The notes beneath the pieces were generated by a model. It saw only the letters and a program-made list of their open reading frames with translations, made no database searches and was not told the origin of the DNA. Below, piece after piece: positions 1 to 33,248 of a DNA stretch of 33,248 nt. The DNA is taken from NCBI GenBank assembly GCA_043754535.1, contig JAYUUN010000081.1, positions 1-33,248 of the forward strand. Direction: 5' to 3'. Every line of letters starts with the position of its first letter. Position 1 is the first letter of the stretch. The position numbers and the translations under genes are program-made. The DNA comes from Chloroflexota bacterium. Its GTDB lineage: Bacteria > Chloroflexota > Chloroflexia > QHBQ01.

Positions 1-662
1 ATCTCACCGCCGGTCGGGAAGTCGGGACCGGGCACGATGTCGAGGATTGCGTCCAGCCCGATATCGGGATTGTCGACCAGGGCCAGGCAGGCGTCGACGA
101 TCTCGCCCAGATTGTGGGGCGGGATATTGGTGGCCATGCCGACCGCGATGCCGCCGGCGCCGTTGACCAGCAGGTTGGGAATGCGGGACGGCAGCACGAC
201 CGGCTCACTCTCGGAGCCGTCGTAGTTGTCCTTGAAGTCGACGGTGTCCTTGTCGAGGTCCGCCAGGATGGCCATGGCGGCCTTGGTCATGCGGCTTTCA
301 GTATAGCGCATGGCGGCGGGCGGATCGTTGTCCACCGAGCCGAAGTTGCCCTGGCCGTCGATCAGCAGCAGGCTCATCGAGAACGGCTGGGCCAGGCGGA
401 CCAGGGTGTCGTAGATCGCGACGTCGCCGTGCGGGTGATACTTGCCCATCACGTCACCGACGATGCGAGCGGATTTGACGTAGGACCGGTCGGGCGTGTG
501 CCCCTGCTCGCCCATCGAAAACAGGATGCGCCGGTGCACGGGCTTCAACCCGTCGCGCACGTCGGGCAGCGCCCGGCTGACGATCACGCTCATGGCGTAG
601 TCTAGGTAGCTGTTCTTCATCTCCGTCTCAATATTGATCGGACGGACTATGCCAATCTCCAT
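1..662 (-). CDS. gyrA: DNA gyrase subunit A, 5' part (runs off window edge)
   Basis: Not in the ORF track. The minus strand from ATG 662 (SD AGAGG upstream) reads [45 protein letters not shown]...GKYHPHGD...GQGNFGS...AAMRYTE...[14 protein letters not shown]...GPDFPTGG. Confidence 0.97.
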
Positions 663-936
663 GCAATCTTATTCCTCTCTGGTACTGCGGGGGTCAAACA
701 AGGTTTGTTGTTAGTTGTATTATACCCTAAAACGGCCCAGGATGCCAGCTTTCGGCGACTTACCGCCCTGGTGTTCTAATCTGGTTTCCACCAAACGCTC
801 CTGGGCCATTTTAGGGGCTAGGAGGGTATAGGCTGTTAGAACCATAGAACGCAACGCGGTAGTAGCTAACTGGTATACTTCTTGCTAACGGCTACTTCTC
901 ACCAGATCGTCGCCTATGGTCTAGAAAGCGGGTCAC

Positions 937-1947
937 ATGGCCGTTGAGCAGCTAATCAAGCAGCAGGGAGCGCGCACCGAGGAGCAGTATCGGCGGCGGG
1001 TGCTGGCTCTGGCTGCCATCTACTTTGTCCTCAACCTCGTTTGCTTGCTGGTGATTTTCATTGTCGCCTGGCGCGTCAAGCTGTGGATCACTATTTCGCA
1101 ACGTAGCAACGTAGAGACCCTAACTTTCGCCTTCATCTTCGTCCTCTTTCTTTACCTCTACATCACCAGCTTTCGGGGAGCGTGGGGTGCCATGCGTATA
1201 TTCTGGCGCAACGGCATAAAGCGGATGCTGGGCCGCAACACTGAGCAGTTGGAGCGCGAAAAGCAGGCTGCCCTACACACCTGCGATCAGGAGGGCCACC
1301 GTCGCGCCTACACCGATGTGCAGATCGTGCGCAACGGTGACGAGGCAAGGCCAATCATCATCCCCCTGCGTGACGCAGCAGGCAGCCTCGGCGAATTGCG
1401 CATCAACGGGGTGCGCCTCTATCTCAAGGCAGAGGTGGAGGGGATCAGCAATTCTATCTTCGAGTATATTGTTAACCAGGTTGAGCAGGCGGTTAACCAG
1501 TGCGCGGAGCAGCACAGCAACGAGGAAGACGACGAGGGCGCACCCATCGAGATCAACATCGTCGCCTGGCAGTCGGTGGATGAGGAGGAGGCGGTGATGT
1601 ACTACCATCAGGTGGAAGCCTTTCGCCGCTTGGCCCGCAAGCTAGATGAGGAGCAGCAGTTTTGGCCGACGATCCGCCTACACGAGGGCGACGTGGAGTA
1701 CCTCAAGGCTCGCCTGCGCGAGGTGATCCCCACCCTGCGCGATGAAACGTTGCTGCCTGACGTGGAGTACAGTGCAGAGTACCGTATCCCAATCATCCCA
1801 GAGCCGCTCGGCTTCGTCAGCCTCAGCCGCAATGAGAAGCGCGCAGACCCTATTGCGACGATGGGCTGCGCGATGGTGGTGGTGATTGCCATGGCGGCCC
1901 TGCTACTCTACTTCATTTACCTGCCGCCCTGGGTGCCGGGCAAGTAA
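937..1947 (+). CDS. hypothetical membrane protein (two N-terminal and one C-terminal TM segments)
   Basis: 336-aa ORF with coding-like codon usage and hydrophobic stretches at both ends. No family recognised. Confidence 0.8.
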   Translation: MAVEQLIKQQGARTEEQYRRRVLALAAIYFVLNLVCLLVIFIVAWRVKLWITISQRSNVETLTFAFIFVLFLYLYITSFRGAWGAMRIFWRNGIKRMLGRNTEQLEREKQAALHTCDQEGHRRAYTDVQIVRNGDEARPIIIPLRDAAGSLGELRINGVRLYLKAEVEGISNSIFEYIVNQVEQAVNQCAEQHSNEEDDEGAPIEINIVAWQSVDEEEAVMYYHQVEAFRRLARKLDEEQQFWPTIRLHEGDVEYLKARLREVIPTLRDETLLPDVEYSAEYRIPIIPEPLGFVSLSRNEKRADPIATMGCAMVVVIAMAALLLYFIYLPPWVPGK

Positions 1948-1959
1948 GGAGCCAGTGCA

Positions 1960-2346
1960 ATGGGTCAGTTGATCAGGCGCAATATCCCCACCATCCTTGC
2001 CAGCCTGATTGGGGTTGGGCTGCTGATCCTGGCCTTTGCCAGCTGCAACGGCCCCAACCCACACGTAGTTGAGTTTAGCCAGCAGCCGACCCCCCAGGCA
2101 GCCCAGCACCCAGGTGAGAACCCCAGCTACAAGGTTACCTTTACTATCGAGAACCAGGGCCGAGGGGACGGACAGACGAAGCTGGTGGTCAAGCTGGTGG
2201 ACAAGCAGAGCGGTCATACCGTAGCTGAGCAACAACAACTGGTCGAGCTTGGCGACCGCGAGACTGAGGAGGTAGATGTCACCTTCCCCGATGTGCCGCA
2301 GGGGGAGTATACAGTGAGCTACGAGTTGCATTACCCGCCAGATTGA
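1960..2346 (+). CDS. hypothetical exported or lipoprotein with Ig/CARDB-like beta domain
   Basis: SD AAGGAG overlaps the upstream stop. Signal-like N-terminus ends LAFASC. YKVTFTIENQG...G pattern. Confidence 0.7.
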   Translation: MGQLIRRNIPTILASLIGVGLLILAFASCNGPNPHVVEFSQQPTPQAAQHPGENPSYKVTFTIENQGRGDGQTKLVVKLVDKQSGHTVAEQQQLVELGDRETEEVDVTFPDVPQGEYTVSYELHYPPD

Positions 2347-2371
2347 CAGCACGGCCCGCCTGACATATGAT
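2343..2371 (+). promoter_or_regulatory. sigma70-type promoter of the RidA gene
   Basis: TTGACA (2343-2348), 17 bp spacer, TATGAT (2366-2371). SD AGGAGG at 2388-2393. Confidence 0.75.
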
Positions 2372-2401
2372 AGCAGCAGATTGCGCCAGGAGGGATGAGC
2401 T

Positions 2402-2803
2402 GTGCAAAAGCAATACCTTAACCCCGAGACAGTTGCCTGACCCATTGGCAACTACACCCATGCGGTTATTACCCAGATTGGCACCGCTGCGATCATCATG
2501 ATTGCTGGTCAGGTAGCGATAGATGACGATGGCAAGCTGGTTGGCGAAGATAGCATGACAGCTCAAGCAGAGTTTGTGTTTGCCCAGATCGATGGTATCT
2601 TGCTAGCTTGCGGAGCCACCTTTGCCGATGTGGTCAAAACTACCTTCTTCGTCACCGATATAAGCCGCATAGGTGAGGTGGCAACGATTCGTCACCGCTA
2701 CATTAGCAAGAACTTCCCGGCCAGCACTGCCGTGGAAGTCAGCAAGCTAGCTCACCCTGGCTTGCTGCTTGAGGTCGAGGTGATGGCAATCGTGCAGCGA
2801 TGA
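2402..2803 (+). pseudogene. RidA/YjgF family protein with premature TGA at codon 13
   Basis: From GTG 2402: MQKQYLNPETVA*PIGNYTHAV...IAGQVA...DVVKTTFFVTD...R..FPASTAVEV..L...LLLEVE. In-frame TGA at 2438-2440. Confidence 0.8.
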
Positions 2804-2817
2804 CCCGCGCTGGCAGG

Positions 2818-2847
2818 TTGACACTGGGCGTGGCTAGCTTGTACAAT
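2818..2847 (+). promoter_or_regulatory. sigma70-type promoter of mfd
   Basis: TTGACA (2818-2823), 18 bp spacer, TACAAT (2842-2847). Confidence 0.65.
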
Positions 2848-2948
2848 AATAGCATCTCATATACGGAGTTGTAAGGGACTGGTCCACGGCCAGCCCCCCT
2901 ATTCATCTGCCCCTTGCCTCCCCTGACCACAGAAAGATATGTACAAAC

Positions 2949-5900
2949 ATGAGCCTTGCTGCCCTGCTTCCTCTCTTGCGCGGAAATAGCCGCTATGTTG
3001 ACTTGCTAGCCGAGGTGGGCCGTGCCTTGCGCGAACCAACCAGCGGTTCGGCCCGCGTTGGTGCCTTGCCCGATGCTGCCAAGCCGCTGCTCCTGGCTGC
3101 CTTGCAAGACGACCTGGCCGGGCAGGATGCGCCACATCGCATCTTCGTGATCGCAGCGCGACCAGAGCGGGCGCAGGCGATCTATGAAGGCTTGCTGGCT
3201 TACGTTCCCGACCTGGCCCGCCTGAGCTACTTCCCCACCCCCGACCCAATGCCCTACGAGCGCGTTGGTTGGGATCGCACGCTGGTTAGTCAGCGGCTAA
3301 CTACGCTGGAGGCGATGGCCGCTCCGCCAACTGGTGGTCTGCCGCTGATGGTAGTGGGGGCTGCCCGCGCCTTCATGCAGCCGACCATGCCGCCAGCCGA
3401 CTTTCGGGAGGCAACGATCACCCTCACTGCTGGCGAACACTTCGACTCGCAACGCATCCTCGCACAACTGGTGGCTATCGGCTACCAGCCCGCCAGCGTA
3501 GTTGAGGAAGCAGGCCAGTTTAGCAGGCGCGGGGGGATCGTGGACATCTACCCCGCCACCGCAGGACAGCCAGTGCGCGTTGACCTCTTTGGCGACGAGA
3601 TCGAGTCGTTGCGCCTGTTCGATCCGGTAACACAGCGCAGCGCAGGGGTAGTAACCAGCGTGAAGATCAGCCCCGCAATGGAGGTTCCGCTCTGGCGGCG
3701 GGCGGACGCGTTGCCTGCCCTACGCGAGTTGCAGATCGACGACCTGCGCGAGGAGGTGCGCGACGAGTGGCGCACCCTGCTCAACCTGTTCGAGCAGGGT
3801 GAGAGCTTCGAGGGCGTAGAGTTGTTCATGCCCTACTTCAGCCCGCCCGGCCAGCCACAAGGTGCGCTGGACTACCTGGAGCCAGGCGACCTGATTGTGA
3901 TTGACGATGTAGCGGCTACCCGCCTGTCAGCGGCAGAGATGGGGGGGCAGGCGACAGAGTATCGCCAGCAGCTAGCCAATCAGCACGAACTACCCGCCAA
4001 CCTGCGTGAACCCTTCATCCCCATTGACCGCCTGATCGCCCGCCTGCAAGACTTCGCCCTGGTGCAGATCGGCCCCTCGGTCGTCACCGACTCAGAGGGC
4101 AACCTGATCCCCCTGGTTTCCTCTACTCTAGGGGAAGGCCAGGTGGATGCTACCGACGAGGAGGGACTGACGGAGCAGGTGATTGCTGCCAACCCCTATG
4201 CAGGCAACATCAGCCGTCTGGTAGCCGACCTGCACCGCTTTCGAGCCGAGGCTACGCGGGTAGTGATCGTCAGCCAACAGACCGCGCGCTTGCGCGAATT
4301 GCTTGAGGAGCAGGACATCTACCCGGCGGTACGCAAGGGTGGGGCGAAGCGTGCGCCCGGCCAGCAATCCACAGTACCAGAGGACTTGCTTGGCCCACCC
4401 GCTGCTGGTAGCCTGCAAATGCTGACCGGCAACATCCCTGGCGGCTTCTTCCTGCGCGAACCCGCCCTCGTCGTCCTCAGCGACAGCGAGATATTCGGCT
4501 GGCGGCCCCCAGTGCGGCGGGCCAGTCGCCGCAGTGCGGGCGAGAAGGAGGCGCGTACCCGCAACGCCTTCCTATCCGAACTGAAGGTGGGCCAGTACGT
4601 CGTGCATATCGAGCATGGCGTGGGTCGCTTCAGTGGGTTGACGATGATGGCGACTGGCGAGGGTGAGCGTGAGTACATGGTGCTGGAATACGCCGCTGGT
4701 GACCGCCTCTACGTCCCCGCCGAGCAGACTGACCGCGTGCTGCCTTACTCCAACATTGGCGGGGCCGAGCCGCAGCTAAACAAGCTGGGGACAGCAGAAT
4801 GGGGACGCACCAAGCGCAAGGTGCGCGCCGCGACAGAGGAACTGGCGCGCGAACTGCTCAAGCTCTATGCTGCCCGCGAGCTATCCAGCCGCCCCAGCTA
4901 TGGCCCCGACACCAACTGGCAGGACGAGATGGAGGCGGGCTTCCCCTACACCGAGACCGAAGACCAGATGCGGGCGATCATCGAGACCAAGAGCGACATG
5001 GTAGAGGAGAAGCCTATGGATCGCCTGATCTGCGGCGATGTGGGCTACGGTAAGACAGAGGTGGCGATGCGGGCGGCCTTCAAGGCGGTGACGGGTGGGC
5101 GGCAGGTGGCAGTGCTGGTGCCAACCACCCTGCTGGCGCAGCAGCACTTCGACAACTTCCGCAACCGCATGGGCGCATTCCCAGTCAACATCGAGATGGT
5201 CAGCCGCTATCGTAGCAAGAAGGAGCAGAAGGAGATCGTGGAGGCGACGCGAGACGGGAAGGTAGACATCCTGATCGGCACCCACCGTCTCTTGCAGAAG
5301 GACATTAGCTTCAAGAACCTGGGCATGATCATCATTGACGAGGAGCAACGCTTCGGCGTGAAGCACAAGGAACGACTCAAGCAGATGCGGACAGAGGTGG
5401 ACGTGCTGACCCTGACCGCCACCCCGATCCCGCGCACCCTGCACATGGCGATGATTGGCGTGCGCGACATGAGCGTGATCGAGACCCCACCAGTCGACCG
5501 CCTACCAATCAAGACCTACGTCACTGCCTATAGCGGCACTCTAGTACGCGAGGTGATCCTGCGTGAGTTGCAGCGTGGCGGGCAGGTCTTCTTCGTCCAC
5601 AATCGCGTGCAGAGTATCGGACATACGCTGAACAAGCTACAAGCTCTGGTGCCAGAGGCGCGCTTTGGCATTGGGCATGGGCAGATGGAGGAGCATGAGC
5701 TAGAGCGGGTGATGAACGCCTTTGTGGGCCGCGAGATTGATGTGCTGCTGGCGACCACGATCATCGAGTCGGGGCTGGACATTCCCAACGCCAACACGCT
5801 GATCGTAGACGAGGCAGAGAACTTTGGCTTGGCTCAACTCTACCAGTTGCGCGGACGGGTGGGGCGCGGCGCAACGCGGGCCTACGCCTACTTCCTCTAC

Positions 5901-17200: not shown

Positions 17201-17594
17201 TCCGCTGAAGCTAGATATGCTTGCCAATGGCAATCCCATACTGCCAGCGATCAGCGCAACGGTGCAAAGTGCCGCTACGCCATTGGACGTGCGGGCGCAG
17301 CGGGCGATAGCCTTCCACCTACGCCTCAGCCTGGGCGCGCAAGTGGAGGTTTCAGCCAGTGTGGACGGCCAGTTCCGCATCCTGGAGGCTGCCTTCAACG
17401 GTACAGGCGATGGGGTGGACGACACGCTAATCTTGCCGATCCCCGCGGACGCAAAGCAGATCGGCCAGCTAACCTTTCGCATCAGCGCACCCCCTGGCGG
17501 CACTGCCAACCTGCGTGACTTCACCTTGCACTATGGCGGCGGCCAACCAGCCGCCAACTTCGCCCTGCTCGGACTGGACCTGCTGGCGAAGTGA
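14226..17594 (+). CDS. large polytopic membrane protein, GT-C fold glycosyltransferase-like, with long soluble C-terminal extension
   Basis: Many TM helices. PP..DAL.YHLALPK loop, AYVD, GNPIWP and LRYLL motifs typical of PMT/ArnT-like GT-C proteins. Start may be ATG 14247. Confidence 0.75.
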   Translation: MIVTTHTMSSEQSLPQAATSGRQAAVGIVLAGLLAAWLVFVFVAFDQEFAAGKGQAPEYFAQLRYMSSSPFSGLLNTAPWLRQSGTASLASWTLTTERWGSLGYIFQLPTVGGLLRAAGHLLAGGGLLLLTLALGLWLARLLRLQLDDPPLILLPLLAGLGYCGVYTVYTLLTLGHLLYPWITYSLTGLLLAGALLTLARERSRVRAWWRTHLPHHHHPRERWRGLDWFLLGVLLVTALLNLATALAPPVLNDALLYHLALPKVYLQHNGFVPVYNTFFILMAEGMEMLYAWPMSLFGAQNISGGITSSLLHFSIGILTTVFSYGVARRFGLSRTAGLIVACCFLVTPLVGREVGTAYVDVGTAYFSVLCLWTLYRYCTASHYSGLAIRWLVAAALFAGMASEVKLFAVTLFPVIAVAVLGKWWTVSRREGIRPARTLRGYLAAGLVAAVVGGLFASHWYIVSWMVLGNPIWPVANLKLGGWFWNEQAEASYQQIVRIFFYSNEGAPFTLGNLARYASWDFSLANTLPIPRGGPLSPRTVPLLTALLPLGTIPLCTWLVGRLRGRKLAAVAAPSYQAPAIAPILWGVAYSVAFLVFWFVVQGQLRYLLFSLPLFGLLAGWNYDWLRRRWPLTALPLNLFLVAAILVTSLANLSFNARAFSSVYGRVDDASYVQDRAAIRWGEQWQTMRYLNRAATPQEAVLFVDLVPLYYLDRDFVISDPGRDNFLAYEQLKTAADFKARLDAGNFRYFNHNREATSLAPLDLGAEWAGRTQYTHLEYVQGSWYTYRKDAEPTAQVDASKIINPPMDGSQGNMCTLGYDGANPLTSLGAWGWVSLDGLDRLSSQRLASCTLLLVNRHSRPLPPLTVQDDDAVQPTDPATLAVALRREGGSRLETADYSVYPVDGRRANVPSKLRQMLGLTQVIDLKPWSATNGTAAISFEVLTRNPLVPRPLLGASVPLTTSLVPEPFFQPDGISLALTGTLTPTAALKTAAPLKLDMLANGNPILPAISATVQSAATPLDVRAQRAIAFHLRLSLGAQVEVSASVDGQFRILEAAFNGTGDGVDDTLILPIPADAKQIGQLTFRISAPPGGTANLRDFTLHYGGGQPAANFALLGLDLLAK

Positions 17595-17607
17595 TGAGGA
17601 GATAAAG

Positions 17608-18564
17608 ATGACAGTAGAGACACAAGCCAGTGCGATCAAGGTGCTGTTTATGGGTACGCCTGCCTTCGCGGTGCCAAGCCTGCGGGCATTGGTGGCGGCG
17701 GGCTACAAGGTAGTGGCGGTCGTCACCCAGCCGGATCGCCCAGCAGGGCGGGGGGGAGCGTTGGCCCAACCGCCGATCAAGCTAGCCGCCCACGAACTGG
17801 GCCTGCCAGTGCTGCAACCGCCAAAGCTACGCTCGCCAGAGGTCGTCGCCGAACTGCAAACTCTCGGCTACGATCTGGCAGTGGTGGCTGCCTATGGCGA
17901 AATCCTGCGGCCCAACGTGCTGGCAATCCCGCCCCTTGCCAACCTCAATGTCCACGCCTCCCTGCTCCCTCGCCAGCGCGGAGCCGCCCCGATCAACGCG
18001 GCGATCCTTGCTGGCGACCAGCAGGCAGGGGTGACGATCATGCTGATGGATGCAGGGATGGACACTGGCCCAATGCTGGCCCAGCGGGCGATCCCTGTAG
18101 CAGCGGCGGAGACGACTGCCAGCCTGACGGTGAAGCTGGCCGACCTCGGCGCAGAGTTGCTGCTGGCGACCCTACCTGCTTACCTGGGTGGCACCCTCCA
18201 GCCCCAGGCGCAAGACAATGCGCTGGCTACTTACACCAGCCCACTGCAAAAGGATGACGGTAAGGTGGATTGGGCGCAGCCAGCCGCGCAGATCGAACGG
18301 ATGGTGCGCGCCTACGACCCCTGGCCTGCGGCCTTCACCCACTGGCAAGGCAAGCGGCTGAAGCTGGTCAGGGTGGCCGTGGCTGCGCCCGCTAGCGAGG
18401 AGGCAGTAGGCGCAGTCTATCGCCGCACAGATGGGCAGGTGGCAGTACGCTGTGGTACGGGCGACCTGTTGCTGCACGAGGTGCAGCTTGAGGGTAAGGG
18501 ATCGACAGCAATCAAGGCCTTCGTCAACGGCTACCAGGAGTTTGTAGGCAGCAAGCTGGGTTTA
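17608..18564 (+). CDS. fmt: methionyl-tRNA formyltransferase (ends at TTA 18562-18564 if UUA terminates; standard-code stop 18636)
   Basis: FMGTPAFAV, VVTQPDRPAGRG, NVHASLLP..RGAAPI, MDAGMDTG, VQLEGK, family-like end GSKLG. SD AGGAG before ATG 17608. Confidence 0.95.
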
Positions 18565-20832: not shown

Positions 20833-21846
20833 TTGCAGAAGCTCAAAGGATTGTTGTTGCTAATAACGATGGTAGGGTTGGTAGCGGGCTGCGACAGTGG
20901 GGGGACAGCTAACACCCCGGCTGCTGCGTTGAAGAAGGTTAGGATTGGCATGGGCTACATCCCCAATGTGCAGTTTGCTGCCTACTACGTTGCCCAGGAG
21001 AAAGGCTACTACCGACAGGCGGGCCTCGATGTCAGCTTCGATTATGGCAGCACAGACGATCTGCTGGCCCAGGTTGCGGTCGGTAAGCTCGACTTCGCCA
21101 ACTCAGAGGGCGACGAACTGATCGTGGCAGCTAGCAAGGGAGTGAAGGATGTCTACGTCCTTGCCCAGTACCAACGCTTCCCAGTAGCGGTCTTCTTTAT
21201 GGCCGACTCGCCGATCAAGACGGTAGCCGACCTGAAGGGCAAGCGGATCGGCCTGCCTGGTAAGTACGGCGCAAACTACAACGGCCTGCTCGCTATGCTC
21301 TACGCCAACCAGATGACAGAGCAGGATGTGCGGCTGCAAGAGGTTGGTTACACCCAGGCCCAGGCGGTGCAGAGCGGCCAGGTAGACGCTGCGGTGGGCT
21401 ATGCAGTCAACGAGCCGATAGCATTGGCGGCTCAGGGCGTGAAGCTACGTACCTTGCAGGCCAGCGACAGCTACAATCTCGCTAGCATCGGCATTATCAC
21501 CAGCCAGGACAAGGTGGCCCAAGACCCCACAACCGTACAAGCCTTTGTCAGCGCGACCCTGCACGGCATTGCCGACATGAACGCCGACCCCGACGCGGCC
21601 TATGCTATCGCGGCAAAGAAGGAGTACGCTAACATTGACCAGCCGAACAGCGCAGTGCAACTGGCTGTGCTGAAGGAGACGGCGAAGTTTCAGCAGCCGA
21701 GTGGCAACCAGAGGCTGGGGGCGAGCGACCCGGCGGTGTGGGCCGCGACCGCAAAGTTCCTGCAAGCCAGCGGCCTGGTCAGCACGCAGCTAGATGTCAG
21801 CACCCTCTACACCAACCGCTTCGTCGAGGCTAGCCGGGTAAAATTA
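20833..21846 (+). CDS. ribY: riboflavin-binding lipoprotein (NMT1/THI5-like); ends at TTA 21844-21846 if UUA terminates, standard-code stop 21918
   Basis: Lipobox LVAGC, GYIPNVQFAAYYVAQEKGYY..AGLDV, DLKGKRIG.PG, C-terminal YTNRFV. Riboswitch context. Confidence 0.82.
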
Positions 21847-29236: not shown

Positions 29237-31273
29237 TTAGCTGCACTCGATCTTGACGAAGCGACGCTTGCCCGCCCGTACGATCAGCCCAGCTACCGGC
29301 TTGACGCTGGCATTGGGGTCACTCACCTTCTGCTCATCCAGGCTGACCCCACCTTGCTCGACCAGGCGGCGAGCCTCCTTGCGGCTGGGCGCGAGGCCAC
29401 ACTTGAGCAGCAGGTCAAGAATGTTGGTCGATTCGCAGGCTAGCTGGGCCGTGGGGATTTCATCGGGCAACCCCTTGTCTTGGAACACGGTGGCGAAGTG
29501 TTGCGCCCCGGCCTCGGCCCCCACATCGCCATGATAGAGGCGCACAATCTCGGAGGCTAGCCGCTTCTTCGCCAGCATTGGGTTCTGGCCTGCCGCGAGA
29601 TCGACCCTGATCTGCTCGATCTCAGCTAGTGGCACCTCAGTGGTAGCAACAAAGTAGTCCACGATCTGCTCGTCACTCAGGCTCATCACCTTGCCGTACA
29701 TATCAGCTGGCGCGTCGATGATGTTGATCGTGTTGCCCCAACTGCTGCTCATCTTACGCCCATCCAGACCCATGATCATCATATTAGTGATGATCTGCTG
29801 CGGGTTTTGGCCGTAAGCCTTCTGGATCACCCGCCCCGCTGTCAGGTTGAACAACTGGTCGGTGCCACCCAACTCTATGTCGGCGCGCACTGCTACGCTG
29901 TCGTAACCTTGCATCAGCGGGTAGAGGAACTCTTGCAGGCCAATCGGCTTGTCATCCTCCCACCGCTGCTTGAAGTTCTCGCGCTGGATCATCTGTGCGA
30001 CGGTGAACTGGCTAGCAAGGCCGATCAGGGCTGCGAAGTTCATCTGGCCTAGCCACTCGCTATTGAAGCGGAACTCCACCTCACCCTGATCGAGGATGCT
30101 CCTGATCTGGTCAATATAGGTCGCCATGTTCTGGCCCACCTGGGCTGCCGTCAGCATTGGGCGGGTAGCATCCTTGTCGCTGGCATCACCAAGCTGGCCG
30201 GTCACATCGCCGATGATAATCACTGCCTGGTGGCCCAGCTTCTGAAACTGGCGCAGCTTGCGGATCGCTACCGCCCGCCCGATGTGTATTTTGCTGCTGG
30301 TTGGGTCAATGCCGAGCTTGACCCGCAGTTGCCGCCCGCTCCGCAGCAGCTTTGCCAAATCCTCACGCACAATCACATCCACCACTCCCCGCGTCAGGAT
30401 ATCCTGGATCGCCACCTCATCAGTGCTGATCTTTGGGGGGGCCAGCATCTTCTCGGCCTCTGGCGGGGCGGTTGGTAGCGGTTGGCTAGCCTGGTCGCCG
30501 ATGATCTCGCTCATGTCGCTGATCAGCGGGTCTGCGAGGTCGAGGTCGTCGTCCGGCCAGGAGCAGCGGGGGTGTTGGCGGTCAAGGTGGAAGGTGCGCA
30601 CCTGCCCACCCAGTTGCTCATGCACCAGCTTCGCCAGCTCGTCAGTGGCGGCGCGCACCTGCTCCTCGTTGACCCCTAGCCAGCCGTCAATAGGGAGAAA
30701 GACGGCCACGCTGTCCTCACGTATCTTCGCTCCATTGCCCTGCCGCCAAACCCAGCGGCGGGTTCGCACCTGGTTGCTGTCGTCCACGTAGACAAACTCA
30801 CCAGCGGGCAGTTGCTCCGGCTCGCCCGGCTCGTCGTCACCGCCAAGAGGCTGAAAGAGGTCGCCCTCACGAGCGGGGCGCAGGGTGATGTCGCCGACGG
30901 TGCGATCCAGGTCGTGTGCGCCAATCGGCAGCAGGTACTTGAGAGCGACGCTGTTTGCCAGGTCTACCAGCGGGTTGATGTGGGGCAGCTTGCCTTTAAT
31001 CGCCCGGCCAGCTAGGGCCTCGATGCTGACGGGGTACTTGTTGGCGTTGATACCGAGGGCGGTGAACGCCTGCCGCCAGGCTGCAATGCCGGGGCTAGCT
31101 TGCAGGGCAGAGAGGCTGGCATACTGCGCCCGCAGATCGGTAATCGCCTGATCTAGGAGGAAGTCTATCGCCTCGTCATCGGCATAGTCCTGCCCCACCC
31201 CATGAGCGACCACCACGCCGAGGTAGAGGTTGGGGAACCGTTCAAGTACCGCCTGATCAATCGTGAAGTGCAT
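29237..31273 (-). CDS. tyrS: tyrosine--tRNA ligase with N-terminal B3/4 (PheRS-beta editing-like) domain
   Basis: ATG 31273 after GAGGT. B3/4: AWRQAF...YPVSIEAL...INPLVDLAN...GEFVYVD...RRWVWRQ. TyrRS: KLGIDPT..IHIGR, YPLMQGYD, GGTDQ, KMSSS, C-terminal S4 domain. Confidence 0.92.
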   Translation of the reverse strand: MHFTIDQAVLERFPNLYLGVVVAHGVGQDYADDEAIDFLLDQAITDLRAQYASLSALQASPGIAAWRQAFTALGINANKYPVSIEALAGRAIKGKLPHINPLVDLANSVALKYLLPIGAHDLDRTVGDITLRPAREGDLFQPLGGDDEPGEPEQLPAGEFVYVDDSNQVRTRRWVWRQGNGAKIREDSVAVFLPIDGWLGVNEEQVRAATDELAKLVHEQLGGQVRTFHLDRQHPRCSWPDDDLDLADPLISDMSEIIGDQASQPLPTAPPEAEKMLAPPKISTDEVAIQDILTRGVVDVIVREDLAKLLRSGRQLRVKLGIDPTSSKIHIGRAVAIRKLRQFQKLGHQAVIIIGDVTGQLGDASDKDATRPMLTAAQVGQNMATYIDQIRSILDQGEVEFRFNSEWLGQMNFAALIGLASQFTVAQMIQRENFKQRWEDDKPIGLQEFLYPLMQGYDSVAVRADIELGGTDQLFNLTAGRVIQKAYGQNPQQIITNMMIMGLDGRKMSSSWGNTINIIDAPADMYGKVMSLSDEQIVDYFVATTEVPLAEIEQIRVDLAAGQNPMLAKKRLASEIVRLYHGDVGAEAGAQHFATVFQDKGLPDEIPTAQLACESTNILDLLLKCGLAPSRKEARRLVEQGGVSLDEQKVSDPNASVKPVAGLIVRAGKRRFVKIECS

Positions 31274-31300
31274 TCTGCTAACCTCATCCCTTTTGGCTGC

Positions 31301-32683
31301 TAACCGCTTGCCGCTCAGTCGATTGAGTACTCGCATGACGCGGCCACTCTGCACAGCGGTCAGGTGCGCCTGCATGACAGCCAGTTGTTGGCGCAGGTTG
31401 GCGATCTCGTCCTCCAGGTTCTGCACCCGCGCCGCCCCGCTCATGGGCGAGGCCGCTTGCCCGTAATCGGGCAGGTGGGCGGCCAGCAACTCAGCGTCAC
31501 TCAGGCGGGCCTGCTCTGCACCAAAGCGTTTGAGGCGGGCAATGGCTTCGTGTTCGCGGTAGGCCAGTTCGCTACCAACCACAGGCTGGGCGGCGGTCTG
31601 CTGCCGCTTGCGCTCGGTCAGCATCTCTAGCAGGGGAAGGAACTGCTGTGACCGCGCTTCGGGCGTGTAGCGCACAAACACGTCGTCGAAGGCCGCTCTG
31701 CCGATACGCACCCGCTCCGCAGGGTCGAGCAGCCGATAGATCGCCGCCGCCCACTCGTCGTCGCCGCTGGCTAGCAGGCCGTTCTCGCCGTCGCGGATCG
31801 CTTCCCGAAAGGCGGGAGTGGGGCTGGCGATAGTGGGTACGCCGACCACCCCGGCCTCAAAATACTTCAGCTCGCTCTTTGCCATCGCGAACGGGTTGTC
31901 CAGTTCGAGGGGGGCGAGGTTGATGTCAGCCTGGGCCTGGATGCTGGGCAGTTGCCGCCAGGGAACGAAGCCGAACCGCTGCACCCGTGCTGTCCCTTCG
32001 TACTGGAACAGTGGCTCTGGCAGGCTCAGGTAGCCGCCAACCAGTAGCCTCACCTCTGGCCGCTCGCTCATCACCCGTGCCAGGGCAGGGACGACCAGAG
32101 CAAAGTCGCGGCTGTGGCTAGGCGAGCCGCTCAGGTAGCAGATGGTGATCGTAGCTGGGTCGCTGGTTGCCGCAGGCTGGGTGGCGAAAGCTGGTTGCTG
32201 CTGGGTAGCATAGATGATCTGGTCGTCGTAGAGGGCGTTGCGATTGACAAAAGCAGGCTTGCCGGTCTGCTCCGTCACCTGCGCGGCCAGGTAGGGGGTG
32301 CTGGTCAGGGCGAAGTCGCACTGGTCGAGGGTGGCGCGGTTGGCCGCGAACTGGCGCAGGTGCAGGGCGGTGTCCGCAGGCGGCATCTGGTAGAGCAGGT
32401 CGATCCGCTGGGCCAACTCTGGCAGGAATACAAGGTCATCGGTATCGTAGAGCGCAAGTTGGCCGCGATCCTGGATCACCGCCAGCATGGCGGCCACGGT
32501 CGGGGTGTAGCTGGCCCGGCAGAAGATGAAGGTGTCGTAGTCGCCCAGGTCGGCCAGCAGCAGCGGGTCGTCGGCGGAGCGCACAGCAGCGGCCACCCCT
32601 GCGAACCAGAGTTGCTCGGCCTGGTGCCAGGCGCGGTAACGCTCGGTGTCGCCGCTCCAACCAGCAATGAACAGTACCTTCAC
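31301..32683 (-). CDS. GT-B (GT4-like) glycosyltransferase with C-terminal coiled coil; in the standard code it reads through into tyrS
   Basis: GTG 32683 after GGAG. RYRAWHQAEQL, YDTDDLVF, GSPSH..D, DINLAPLE..NPF..AKSELKYFEAG..GVPTIAS. Tail VQSGRVMRVL is typical of polysaccharide-cluster proteins, then TTA at 31303-31301. Confidence 0.85.
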
Positions 32684-32687
32684 TGGC

Positions 32688-33248
32688 TCAGACTCCGATC
32701 CCGTTGTGCGGGCGATTGGCCGTCGCCTCGTCCTGCGCCAGGCTGCGGTCAAACTGGGACTGCGCCTCGGCACTAGCCTGCGCCCCGGCCAATTCCTCAC
32801 CGCTCAAGAGCAGGTCGCTGCTACTCTCAGCGTACTCTGCACTGGCTAGCTCGTGGCTGGTGGTACCATTCGTAGCCACGCCGTTGCTAGCTGGTTGGAG
32901 CAGGTCGTGCTTGCCGTTGCCGTTCAAGGCTGGCGAGGCAGCAGGCGGCCCAATGAAGTCGGCAGCCACGCCACTCGGTTCGGTGAACTCGCCGATCAGG
33001 AAGTCAAACTCGCGCTTGGTGTGCGTCTGTGGGGCTTCCTCGGTGCAATGCTGCCACGCGGCATCTACCTGGATCAGGCCATAACGTTCACCGCCCAGTT
33101 CTGGCTGCACGTCGAAGGTGTACCAGTGGTCGTGGTAGTCGAGGCAGTTGATCAGTTCGTTGTCATAGATCGAAACGGCAACATCAAAGTGGCCCTCCAG
33201 CAGCGGCAGCTTGGCGATCTTATAATCCACGTAGCCCTTACCGTGGAT
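32688..33248 (-). CDS. C-terminal part of polysaccharide ABC exporter ATPase (Wzt C-terminal domain), partial
   Basis: G.GYVDY.I..LPLLEG.FDV.VSIYD......DYHD..Y.F.V......YG resembles Wzt_C. Next to a glycosyltransferase. Confidence 0.7.
   Translation of the reverse strand: MHGKGYVDYKIAKLPLLEGHFDVAVSIYDNELINCLDYHDHWYTFDVQPELGGERYGLIQVDAAWQHCTEEAPQTHTKREFDFLIGEFTEPSGVAADFIGPPAASPALNGNGKHDLLQPASNGVATNGTTSHELASAEYAESSSDLLLSGEELAGAQASAEAQSQFDRSLAQDEATANRPHNGIGV

Follow-up and report, generated by a model that had tools for sequence, protein, structure and literature searches.

A sole in-frame TTA between a glycosyltransferase gene and tyrS, and stop-like UUA in a family of uncultured Chloroflexia

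The window, as the whole stretch of DNA analysed here is called, comprises 33,248 nucleotides of a Chloroflexota bacterium (assembly GCA_043754535.1, contig JAYUUN010000081.1) and carries on its minus strand, at 29237..32800, a frame of 1187 codons which under the standard code reads from a predicted GT-B glycosyltransferase (GT) into a predicted tyrosine--tRNA ligase (TyrRS, the product of tyrS). The subject of this work is the TTA codon, codon 500 of the frame, which lies between the two. The public gene call of the frame is one protein of 1148 amino acids (P0002; 9 members on 4 contigs), and its Pfam domains follow each other in the order GT-B (codons 231-388, with Glyco_trans_1_4 at 231-359), B3_4 (574-728), tRNA-synt_1b (822-1107) and S4/SYY_C (1113-1182). 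The original prediction had described the frame as a GT-B enzyme joined to TyrRS with a sole in-frame TTA at the joint, which agrees with this domain order and with the codon count, as a single TTA is present in all 1187 codons (other leucine codons: TTG 7, CTT 9, CTC 27, CTA 12, CTG 69). Divided at the TTA, the locus holds the following features.

31304..32683, minus strand: predicted GT-B (GT4-type) glycosyltransferase gene of 460 codons, from GTG at 32683 to CGG at 31304; Pfam Glyco_trans_1_4, Glyco_trans_1_2 and Glycos_transf_1
~31637..32110, minus strand: GT domain, then a coiled-coil tail ending ...GRVMRVLNRLSGKR
31301..31303, minus strand: in-frame TTA (codon 500), read as the termination codon of the GT gene; kept in the congeneric genome G001, with stop-like behaviour genome-wide
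31274..31300, minus strand: intergenic spacer of 27 nt with the Shine-Dalgarno sequence GAGGT (31285..31281) and the second copy of GGTTAGCAG
29240..31273, minus strand: tyrS, predicted 678-aa tyrosine--tRNA ligase with N-terminal B3_4 (Pfam, TIGR00234)
~30617..31081, minus strand: B3_4 of tyrS
29480..30337, minus strand: class-I catalytic part of tyrS
29255..29464, minus strand: S4/SYY_C of tyrS
29237..29239, minus strand: canonical stop of tyrS

On the minus strand the junction reads AGC GGC AAG CGG TTA GCA GCC AAA AGG GAT GAG GTT AGC AGA ATG CAC TTC, and the succession of AAG CGG TTA, 27 nt with GAGGT and ATG CAC that had been predicted stands as such at 31303..31271. The TTA occupies 31303..31301 and the ATG, codon 510 of the frame, 31273..31271, with the GAGGT placed so that the ATG follows 7 nt further. 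Reading of the window with NCBI table 23 divides the frame into 499 and 678 amino acids and trims two further genes to the ends of their homology; 678 and 1148 amino acids, the two lengths between which the original prediction had left the choice, are both right. The conceptual peptide across the junction if UUA is leucine would be …SGKRLAAKRDEVSRMH…, while a split predicts …VLNRLSGKR as the C-terminus of the GT and MHFTIDQAVLER (MHFTIDQ…) as the N-terminal peptide of TyrRS from the ATG. A stretch of 301 bases around the junction recurs unchanged (0 other letters, 0 gaps) in contigs from 4 public runs, each of a different study, at a word depth of 8-26, which makes a one-off assembly error at this place unlikely. 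No promoter-like or terminator-like sites were found in a scan of window 31000..31600 and the GT gene and tyrS are therefore likely to be co-transcribed. A 9-nt word, GGTTAGCAG, occurs twice within 31277..31307 (minus strand) with starts 22 nt apart, the first copy covering the TTA and the second standing just ahead of the ATG; G001 has GGTTAACAG as its second copy, and the repetition may be due to chance.

The upstream product is predicted to be a glycosyltransferase of the GT-B/GT4 type, with all Pfam scores of this half above the cut-offs (PF13692, 52.8 bits; PF13524, 48.2 bits; PF00534, 38.2 bits), and it has the same coiled-coil tail as its GT4 relatives and no notable difference from them. 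Its closest homologues (60-70% identity) start with MKVLFIAGW and end in ...LNRLGRK, ...LNRLTGNR, ...TGRRR or ...TGKRRL; the homologues P0122, P0124, P0125 and P0126 stop at the TTA or at most 2 residues from it, and P0123 and P0127 extend beyond it with tails that cannot be aligned. The 678-aa product in turn appears to be a B3_4-TyrRS of the Chloroflexota type, as PF03483, PF00579 and an S4-like C-terminus are all present, and scores 348.7 bits with the tyrS equivalog TIGR00234 (cut-off 113.8; residues 289-677 against profile positions 7-405 of 406). Its translation contains KIHIGR and KMSSS, which we take to be the HIGH-like and KMSSS motifs. All 5 aligned TyrRS homologues begin with MHFTI or MKFTI at the residue that matches M510.

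The set of TyrRS homologues consists of the best 120 of 7747 matches, with lengths of 372-1187 amino acids. Most of the 120 listed combine B3_4 with tRNA-synt_1b, P0105-P0121 being without B3_4, and the 678-aa TyrRS has the same N-terminal B3_4 as most of these relatives (560-790 amino acids); B3_4-TyrRS proteins of about 640-700 amino acids are common in Chloroflexota. The combination of GT, B3_4 and tRNA-synt_1b is found among the 120 listed in P0002 only, the 90% cluster of the organism itself, and this result of an architecture search supports the split. In G001, a genome of the same genus with 96% protein identity, the same frame is open and the TTA is kept, and in the sister-genus genomes G002 and G004 tyrS is preceded by a terminator-like stretch with no GT upstream, so that the junction in these relatives offers no conserved fusion with a sense codon in place of TTA. 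Once the frame is split, GT and TyrRS are ordinary members of their families, and it is the change of the code which is the finding.

Two side observations concern TyrRS. The enzymes of the sister genus (loci L003 of G002 and L004 of G004) possess about 75 additional C-terminal residues (…IRAALQQAI…RIDYT…), with neither a stop nor a TTA ahead of them, which are absent from the TyrRS of the window. In G009, G017 and G007, free-standing B3_4-like proteins (about 235-295 amino acids) match TyrRS residues 1-238 only and the TyrRS lacks the N-terminal domain, so that within the order B3_4 exists as a fused domain and also as a protein of its own.

The genome of the window (G000; 3.87 Mb in 132 contigs, 61% G+C, 89% complete) contains TTA 477 times in the 1,072,502 codons of its open reading frames (ORFs) of at least 250 amino acids. 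This corresponds to 0.44 per 1000 codons, compared with 10.3 for CTA and 14.4 for TTG, which are 23 and 32 times commoner. At the rate of TTA about 0.5 would be expected in 1187 codons and a single one is unremarkable; judged by the alignments, what chance fails to account for is not the number of TTA but its position exactly at the end of the GT homologues and 9 codons ahead of the start of the TyrRS homologues. In 2595 composition-filtered ORFs, out of 4357 of at least 150 amino acids, the 397 in-frame TTA are distributed over the deciles of the ORF as 106, 18, 12, 5, 18, 16, 7, 11, 34 and 170, and the in-frame TTA of G000 lie ahead of real starts or at the extreme 3' end. No TTA is situated inside a domain in the 68 ORFs of at least 1000 amino acids, where mid-ORF TTA mark junctions with a Shine-Dalgarno sequence and a start codon downstream.

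How coding potential behaves on the two sides of a codon was assessed with 20 codons each side in six frames, TTA and stops being left out of the scoring. Coding continues past 4 of the 147 TTA with confident coding sequence upstream (2.7%) and drops at 124 (84%), while the corresponding values are 3 of 387 and 90% for TAA (0.8% continuing), 18 of 1006 and 78% for TAG (1.8%) and 7 of 465 and 91% for TGA (1.5%). Past the sense codons CTA, ATA, TCA, TTT, AAA and GTA coding continues in 34-43% (UCA, with 310 of 860, is still sense in G000), past TGT in 217 of 752 (29%, with drops in 32%) and past AGA in 97 of 488 (20%, with drops in 50%). By Fisher's test TTA is distinct from CTA (p = 1.5e-26) and not from the canonical stops (p = 0.29). 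Of the four TTA past which coding continues, one is a gene junction (the start of RNase PH lies two codons further on), one belongs to a misframed repeat and two have short tails of doubtful nature, and none is a credible sense codon.

The next in-frame canonical stop follows the 147 TTA at a median distance of 17 codons, and immediately in 6 of them. Overlap of the end codon with a downstream ATG is seen as TTATG at 14 of 147 sites, as TAATG at 13 of 387 and as TGATG at 27 of 465. The base after the stop-like TTA is G in 70 (48%), A in 12 and C or T in 65 of the 147; G follows the canonical stops in 19-39% and is enriched after TTA. By the coding-window count an estimated 7% or so of the genes of G000 end with TTA, and 9-17% of those of its relatives G001-G003. 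Among the canonical stops of G000, TAG is the commonest (1048 of 2310 long ORFs; 1006 of 1858 confident ends), the next base being C in 51%. Across G000, TTA is absent from gene interiors and behaves like a stop.

The family to which G000 belongs consists of five species genomes (G000-G004) of uncultured Chloroflexia in two genera, G000 and G001 forming the one and G002-G004 the sister genus. With the same test, none of the in-frame TTA is followed by continued coding in G001 (0 of 21), G002 (0 of 26) and G003 (0 of 12), whereas TTA is sense-like in G005 (7 of 17 continue) and G006 (3 of 11) of other families. Stop-like TTA is thus common to one family and absent from the neighbouring families of the order. 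The original prediction had called the 27 nt ordinary operon spacing if TTA terminates, and this is borne out by homologues of both halves that end or begin at the junction and by a stop-like TTA in G000 and three relatives; as a local curiosity the TTA was underrated, since it is one instance of a family-wide change.

Homology at the ends of other genes, essential ones among them, agrees with this picture. From 20 fetchable regions out of 71 candidates, 35 proteins truncated at TTA were compared with NCBIfam (E ≤ 1e-10), with a match for 23 and none for 12. In 17 of the 23 the match stops no more than 10 positions short of the end of protein and profile alike, and the other six match part of a domain or leave 13-20 residues uncovered. 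Matches up to the end include MurC (residues 9-459 of 463 against profile positions 1-448 of 449), threonine dehydrogenase Tdh (42-383 of 384), a thiolase (5-394 of 396), a MalG-like permease (29-305 of 305), isocitrate dehydrogenase and a CobB-type deacetylase. In a 400-kb sample of G002, all 10 homologues of TTA-ended genes have TAA, TGA or TAG at 0-11 codons from the aligned end, 3 of them exactly there, in a count that leaves out an unstated number of alignments stopping more than 12 residues short; in G006 one homologue has TGA exactly at the position of TTA. The tyrS of G004 itself ends in …STGEPVDG-TTA and that of G002 in …STGEAAGD-stop. Two further genes of the window end in the same way.

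17515..18564, plus strand: fmt, methionyl-tRNA formyltransferase; TTA at 18562..18564 (codon 350); TIGR00460 equivalog, 292 bits
20833..21846, plus strand: gene for an SsuA-family substrate-binding protein; TTA at 21844..21846 (codon 338); TIGR01728

The match of Fmt to TIGR00460 covers residues 42-345 and profile positions 2-309 of 315, the true start probably lying downstream of 17515, and the standard-code frame runs on to 18636 (plus strand) for 23 codons through a GC-rich hairpin (GGGAGATGCGTTGTGCATCTCCC). The SsuA-family protein matches TIGR01728 with residues 39-331 over profile positions 2-289 of 290; coding potential falls after the TTA, and the standard-code frame runs on to 21918 (plus strand). 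Standard-code calls append 23-24 false residues to each of the two proteins.

A second long frame of G000 resembles the one under study. In contig C1 a YfhO-like/GH35 frame of 1574 codons has TTA at codon 784, at a junction that reads CGC TTA TTC TCG GAG GCT ACA CCG ATG, the TTA being followed by TTCTCGGAGGCTACACCG and by an ATG that opens a typical GH35 N-terminus; most likely this frame is two genes. Junctions of the same kind are found in C2 (codon 309), C107 (codons 281 and 758) and C105 (RNase PH).

As to the means of decoding, no tRNA-Leu(UAA) is present among the 46 aragorn tRNAs of G000 or the 44 Rfam tRNA matches, all of which lie within the aragorn set, and the leucine anticodons found by aragorn are CAA, CAG, GAG and UAG. 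BLAST with the tRNA-Leu(UAA) of G005 gave a match in none of the five family genomes; of the 16 genomes from two other families of the order, 13 had one (10 of 13 when the unpublished G007, G012 and G015 are left out), those without being G006, G008 and G014. In relatives this tRNA usually stands just downstream of tRNA-Gly(GCC); this slot is occupied in G005, but in G000, G001, G002 and G004, where it has likewise been assembled, it is empty. An aragorn call of 'tRNA-Pyl(cta)' in G000 (C31, 4032..4124, 93 nt) was rejected as a suppressor, having mismatched stems and being missed by the Rfam tRNA model, and is probably false. A tmRNA with the tag GNKQYALAA is present. In the assembled tRNA set (G000; locus L041 of G002) a tRNA-Arg(GCG) is further present and tRNA-Arg(ACG) is lacking, an unusual arrangement for bacteria.

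Each genome examined has exactly two class-I release factors, and PF00472 matches RF1 and RF2 only, with no ArfB-type GGQ protein found. The recognition elements of RF1 (GGDEA…, PxT, GRIHTS) do not vary among the 15 sequences compared. The five RF2s of the family, set against 127 others (15 from the order and 112 representatives), have in common three substitutions which are rare elsewhere (at most 3%), affect conserved positions and all lie in the codon-recognition domain, namely D (95% conserved) to E or A in GGTEAQDW and, in GVHRLVR, an exchange of V for Q and one of L (99% conserved) for M. In E. coli numbering the latter two are V198Q and L201M. For orientation, SPF corresponds to residues 205-207 of RF2 and Val198 and Phe217 lie within the domain-2 sheet, according to the available passages of PMC5378476.

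Two candidates for a determinant of UUA reading were tried and rejected. The His-to-Gln exchange of RF2 (RRHTSF to RRQTSF) is common elsewhere, with RQTS in 56, RHTS in 74 and RETS in 5 of the 135 motif matches among 150 representatives. SPY in place of SPF is found also in G013, which bears the tRNA, and in many eubacteria, nearly one-third of eubacterial RF2 in the passages available of PMC3472500. A prfB frameshift site that uses TTA is likewise discounted, as CTT TGA C is kept in all five prfB inspected, three of them from the family.

Considered together, GT and B3_4-TyrRS are very probably separate proteins, encoded by adjacent and probably co-transcribed genes in a family that has in all likelihood given up UUA as a leucine codon and uses it as a stop-like codon of gene ends. 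Translation of the GT would end at UUA (31303..31301) and that of TyrRS would start at the ATG 27 nt further on, with a Shine-Dalgarno sequence of its own. We consider it probable that UUA is a genuine stop read by a release factor in this family of free-living uncultured Chloroflexia, ending about 7-17% of genes. RF2, which normally reads U-(A/G)-A, would most likely be the reader because of this specificity, the three rare family-specific substitutions and the unchanged RF1. The route may have been codon capture, in which pressure towards G+C would first have made UUA rare, tRNA-Leu(UAA) would then have been lost and RF2 would have widened its reading, after which single A-to-T changes of TAA stops would have become tolerable.

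Several points speak against this interpretation. The coding-window test is indirect, and the junction itself, with a weak score on both sides, lies outside the 147 sites and rests on homology. G004 has zero in-frame TTA in a sample of 112 kb, with the end of tyrS as the single example. Between G000 and G001 the TTA is kept at 13 of 16 spanning sites, which says little because such conservation is expected at about 93% DNA identity; no switch from TTA to a canonical stop occurs among these 16, the other three being a site outside coding sequence, an indel and a badly aligned pair. All bins are incomplete (83-89% complete), so that the absence of the tRNA rests on synteny and on five concordant bins. 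The changes in RF2 and the reading of UUA are a correlation only, and the family RF2 keeps the Ser of SPF/SPY, while the organellar RF2 that reads UUA has lost the invariant Ser204, a residue whose counterpart here is not mapped with certainty. None of the public runs listed as holding the junction is an RNA run.

If UUA were still leucine, by way of an undetected tRNA or near-cognate reading, the fusion of 1148 amino acids, with a mass of some 125 kDa, would be real and a free TyrRS might arise in addition from an internal start. A frame which is open in the standard code, conserved in two species and identical in the contigs of four studies is in line with this, as is the incompleteness of the bins. 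However, the homologues of both halves end or begin at the junction, the 9 linker codons contain a Shine-Dalgarno sequence, TTA is nearly absent from gene interiors and marks 147 gene ends, and leucine would provide MurC, Fmt, Tdh and many others with random tails of a median of 17 residues. With no other such fusion among the 120 listed homologues and the tRNA-Leu(UAA) slot empty at four assembled loci, the fusion of a GT with an aminoacyl-tRNA synthetase that the original prediction had offered as the other outcome is not upheld and is very unlikely. An artefact, by which sequencing, assembly or systematic base-calling error had turned TAA into TTA, is highly unlikely. TTA is one base from TAA and all data are metagenome assemblies, but the junction is shared by the four studies, G001 has the same codon, the contexts of TTA are diverse with no single motif, 387 normal TAA ends coexist, and neither the loss of the tRNA nor the changes in RF2 depend on such an error.

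Two other explanations, which would equally yield two proteins, are together unlikely. UUA might be an unassigned 'hungry' codon with neither tRNA nor release factor, at which ribosomes stall to be freed by tmRNA or by slow unspecific release, the upstream protein being tagged, degraded or made inefficiently. The loss of tRNA-Leu(UAA), the presence of tmRNA, the SPF/SPY serine kept by RF2 and the lack of any release factor residue recognised as a known reader of U at position 2 are compatible with it, and CGG in Mycoplasma capricolum (cited in the available part of PMC8629427) is a bacterial precedent. Yet tagging would be costly for a codon at the end of so large a share of genes, with murC, fmt, tdh and the tyrS of G004 among them, the TTATG overlaps suggest ordinary coupling of termination and reinitiation, rescue by an ArfB-type protein finds no candidate in the PF00472 search, and RF2 carries lineage-specific changes in its recognition domain; we regard a purely hungry codon as improbable. 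A ribosome halted at UUA might also slip by +1 onto UAG or UAA, to be read by RF1 or RF2, as is said to occur at AGA/AGG in human mitochondria. At the junction UUA G would give UAG, and 82 of the 147 TTA are followed by G or A, with G enriched relative to canonical stops. In the remaining 65, YfhO/GH35 (TTA TTC), the TTATG overlaps and murC included, slippage would lead to the tyrosine codons UAC or UAU, for which +1 slip as the general mechanism is ruled out, and the codons before TTA are diverse (AAG, CGC, CAG, GAG and others) and mostly allow no +1 re-pairing; slippage is quite improbable.

The preferred reading, a UUA stop recognised by a release factor, has its closest parallels in organelles. 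In labyrinthulean (Thraustochytrium) mitochondria, to which table 23 applies, the same codon has undergone the same change from Leu to stop, in a small organelle genome as opposed to a bacterial chromosome of about 4 Mb with 61% G+C. An RF2-type factor is the proposed reader of UUA there and mtRF2a lacks the invariant Ser204 (PMC12574857, in the passages available, as for all that is cited from it here), whereas the bacterial RF2 keeps the serine and has other substitutions; if RF2 reads UUA in the family, it would probably do so with recognition-domain changes unlike those of the organellar factors. In plastids of dinoflagellates derived from pedinophytes, UUA and UCA are stops; UUA is confined there to gene 3' ends, RF1 is normal and RF2 is modified, an invariant serine having been lost from this factor as well (PMC12574857). 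The pattern of UUA at 3' ends, a changed RF2 and an unchanged RF1 is the same here, with the difference that UCA is sense in G000 and no RNA editing is known. UUR stops are further described in some green-algal mitochondria, and the plastid case is called the first sense-to-stop change outside mitochondria (2025; PMC12574857). Among bacteria, CGG in M. capricolum (PMC8629427) and UUA in Streptomyces with bldA (PMC10732093) also link a rare codon to loss or limitation of its tRNA; in the parts of these sources available such codons are avoided or regulatory, while here 7-17% of genes regularly end in UUA.

The literature searched yielded no bacterial case of a sense codon turned into a stop, and the passages searched on the Codetta screen, the largest for alternative codes, hold nothing on TTA in Chloroflexi. 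Codetta itself cannot detect sense-to-stop changes; such lineages would therefore be missed, and there may be more. If true, a kind of codon reassignment so far described in organelles only, from sense to stop, would be seen here for the first time in a bacterial chromosome, and it would offer a natural system for how a release factor gains a codon and how a codon goes through a phase without assignment. Standard-code gene calls would be systematically wrong, with false fusions (GT-TyrRS, YfhO-GH35) and false tails (MurC, Fmt and others), and roughly a tenth of the proteins of these genomes would be mis-annotated in public databases with such tails or fusions, as is P0002.

A minor observation concerns contig C14 of G000, where TTA closes a TOMM-kinase/cyclase-like frame of 1256 residues (81..3848, plus strand). 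The C-terminal 80 residues of the frame correspond to positions 1-80 of an IS1-family transposase profile, and this may be another junction.

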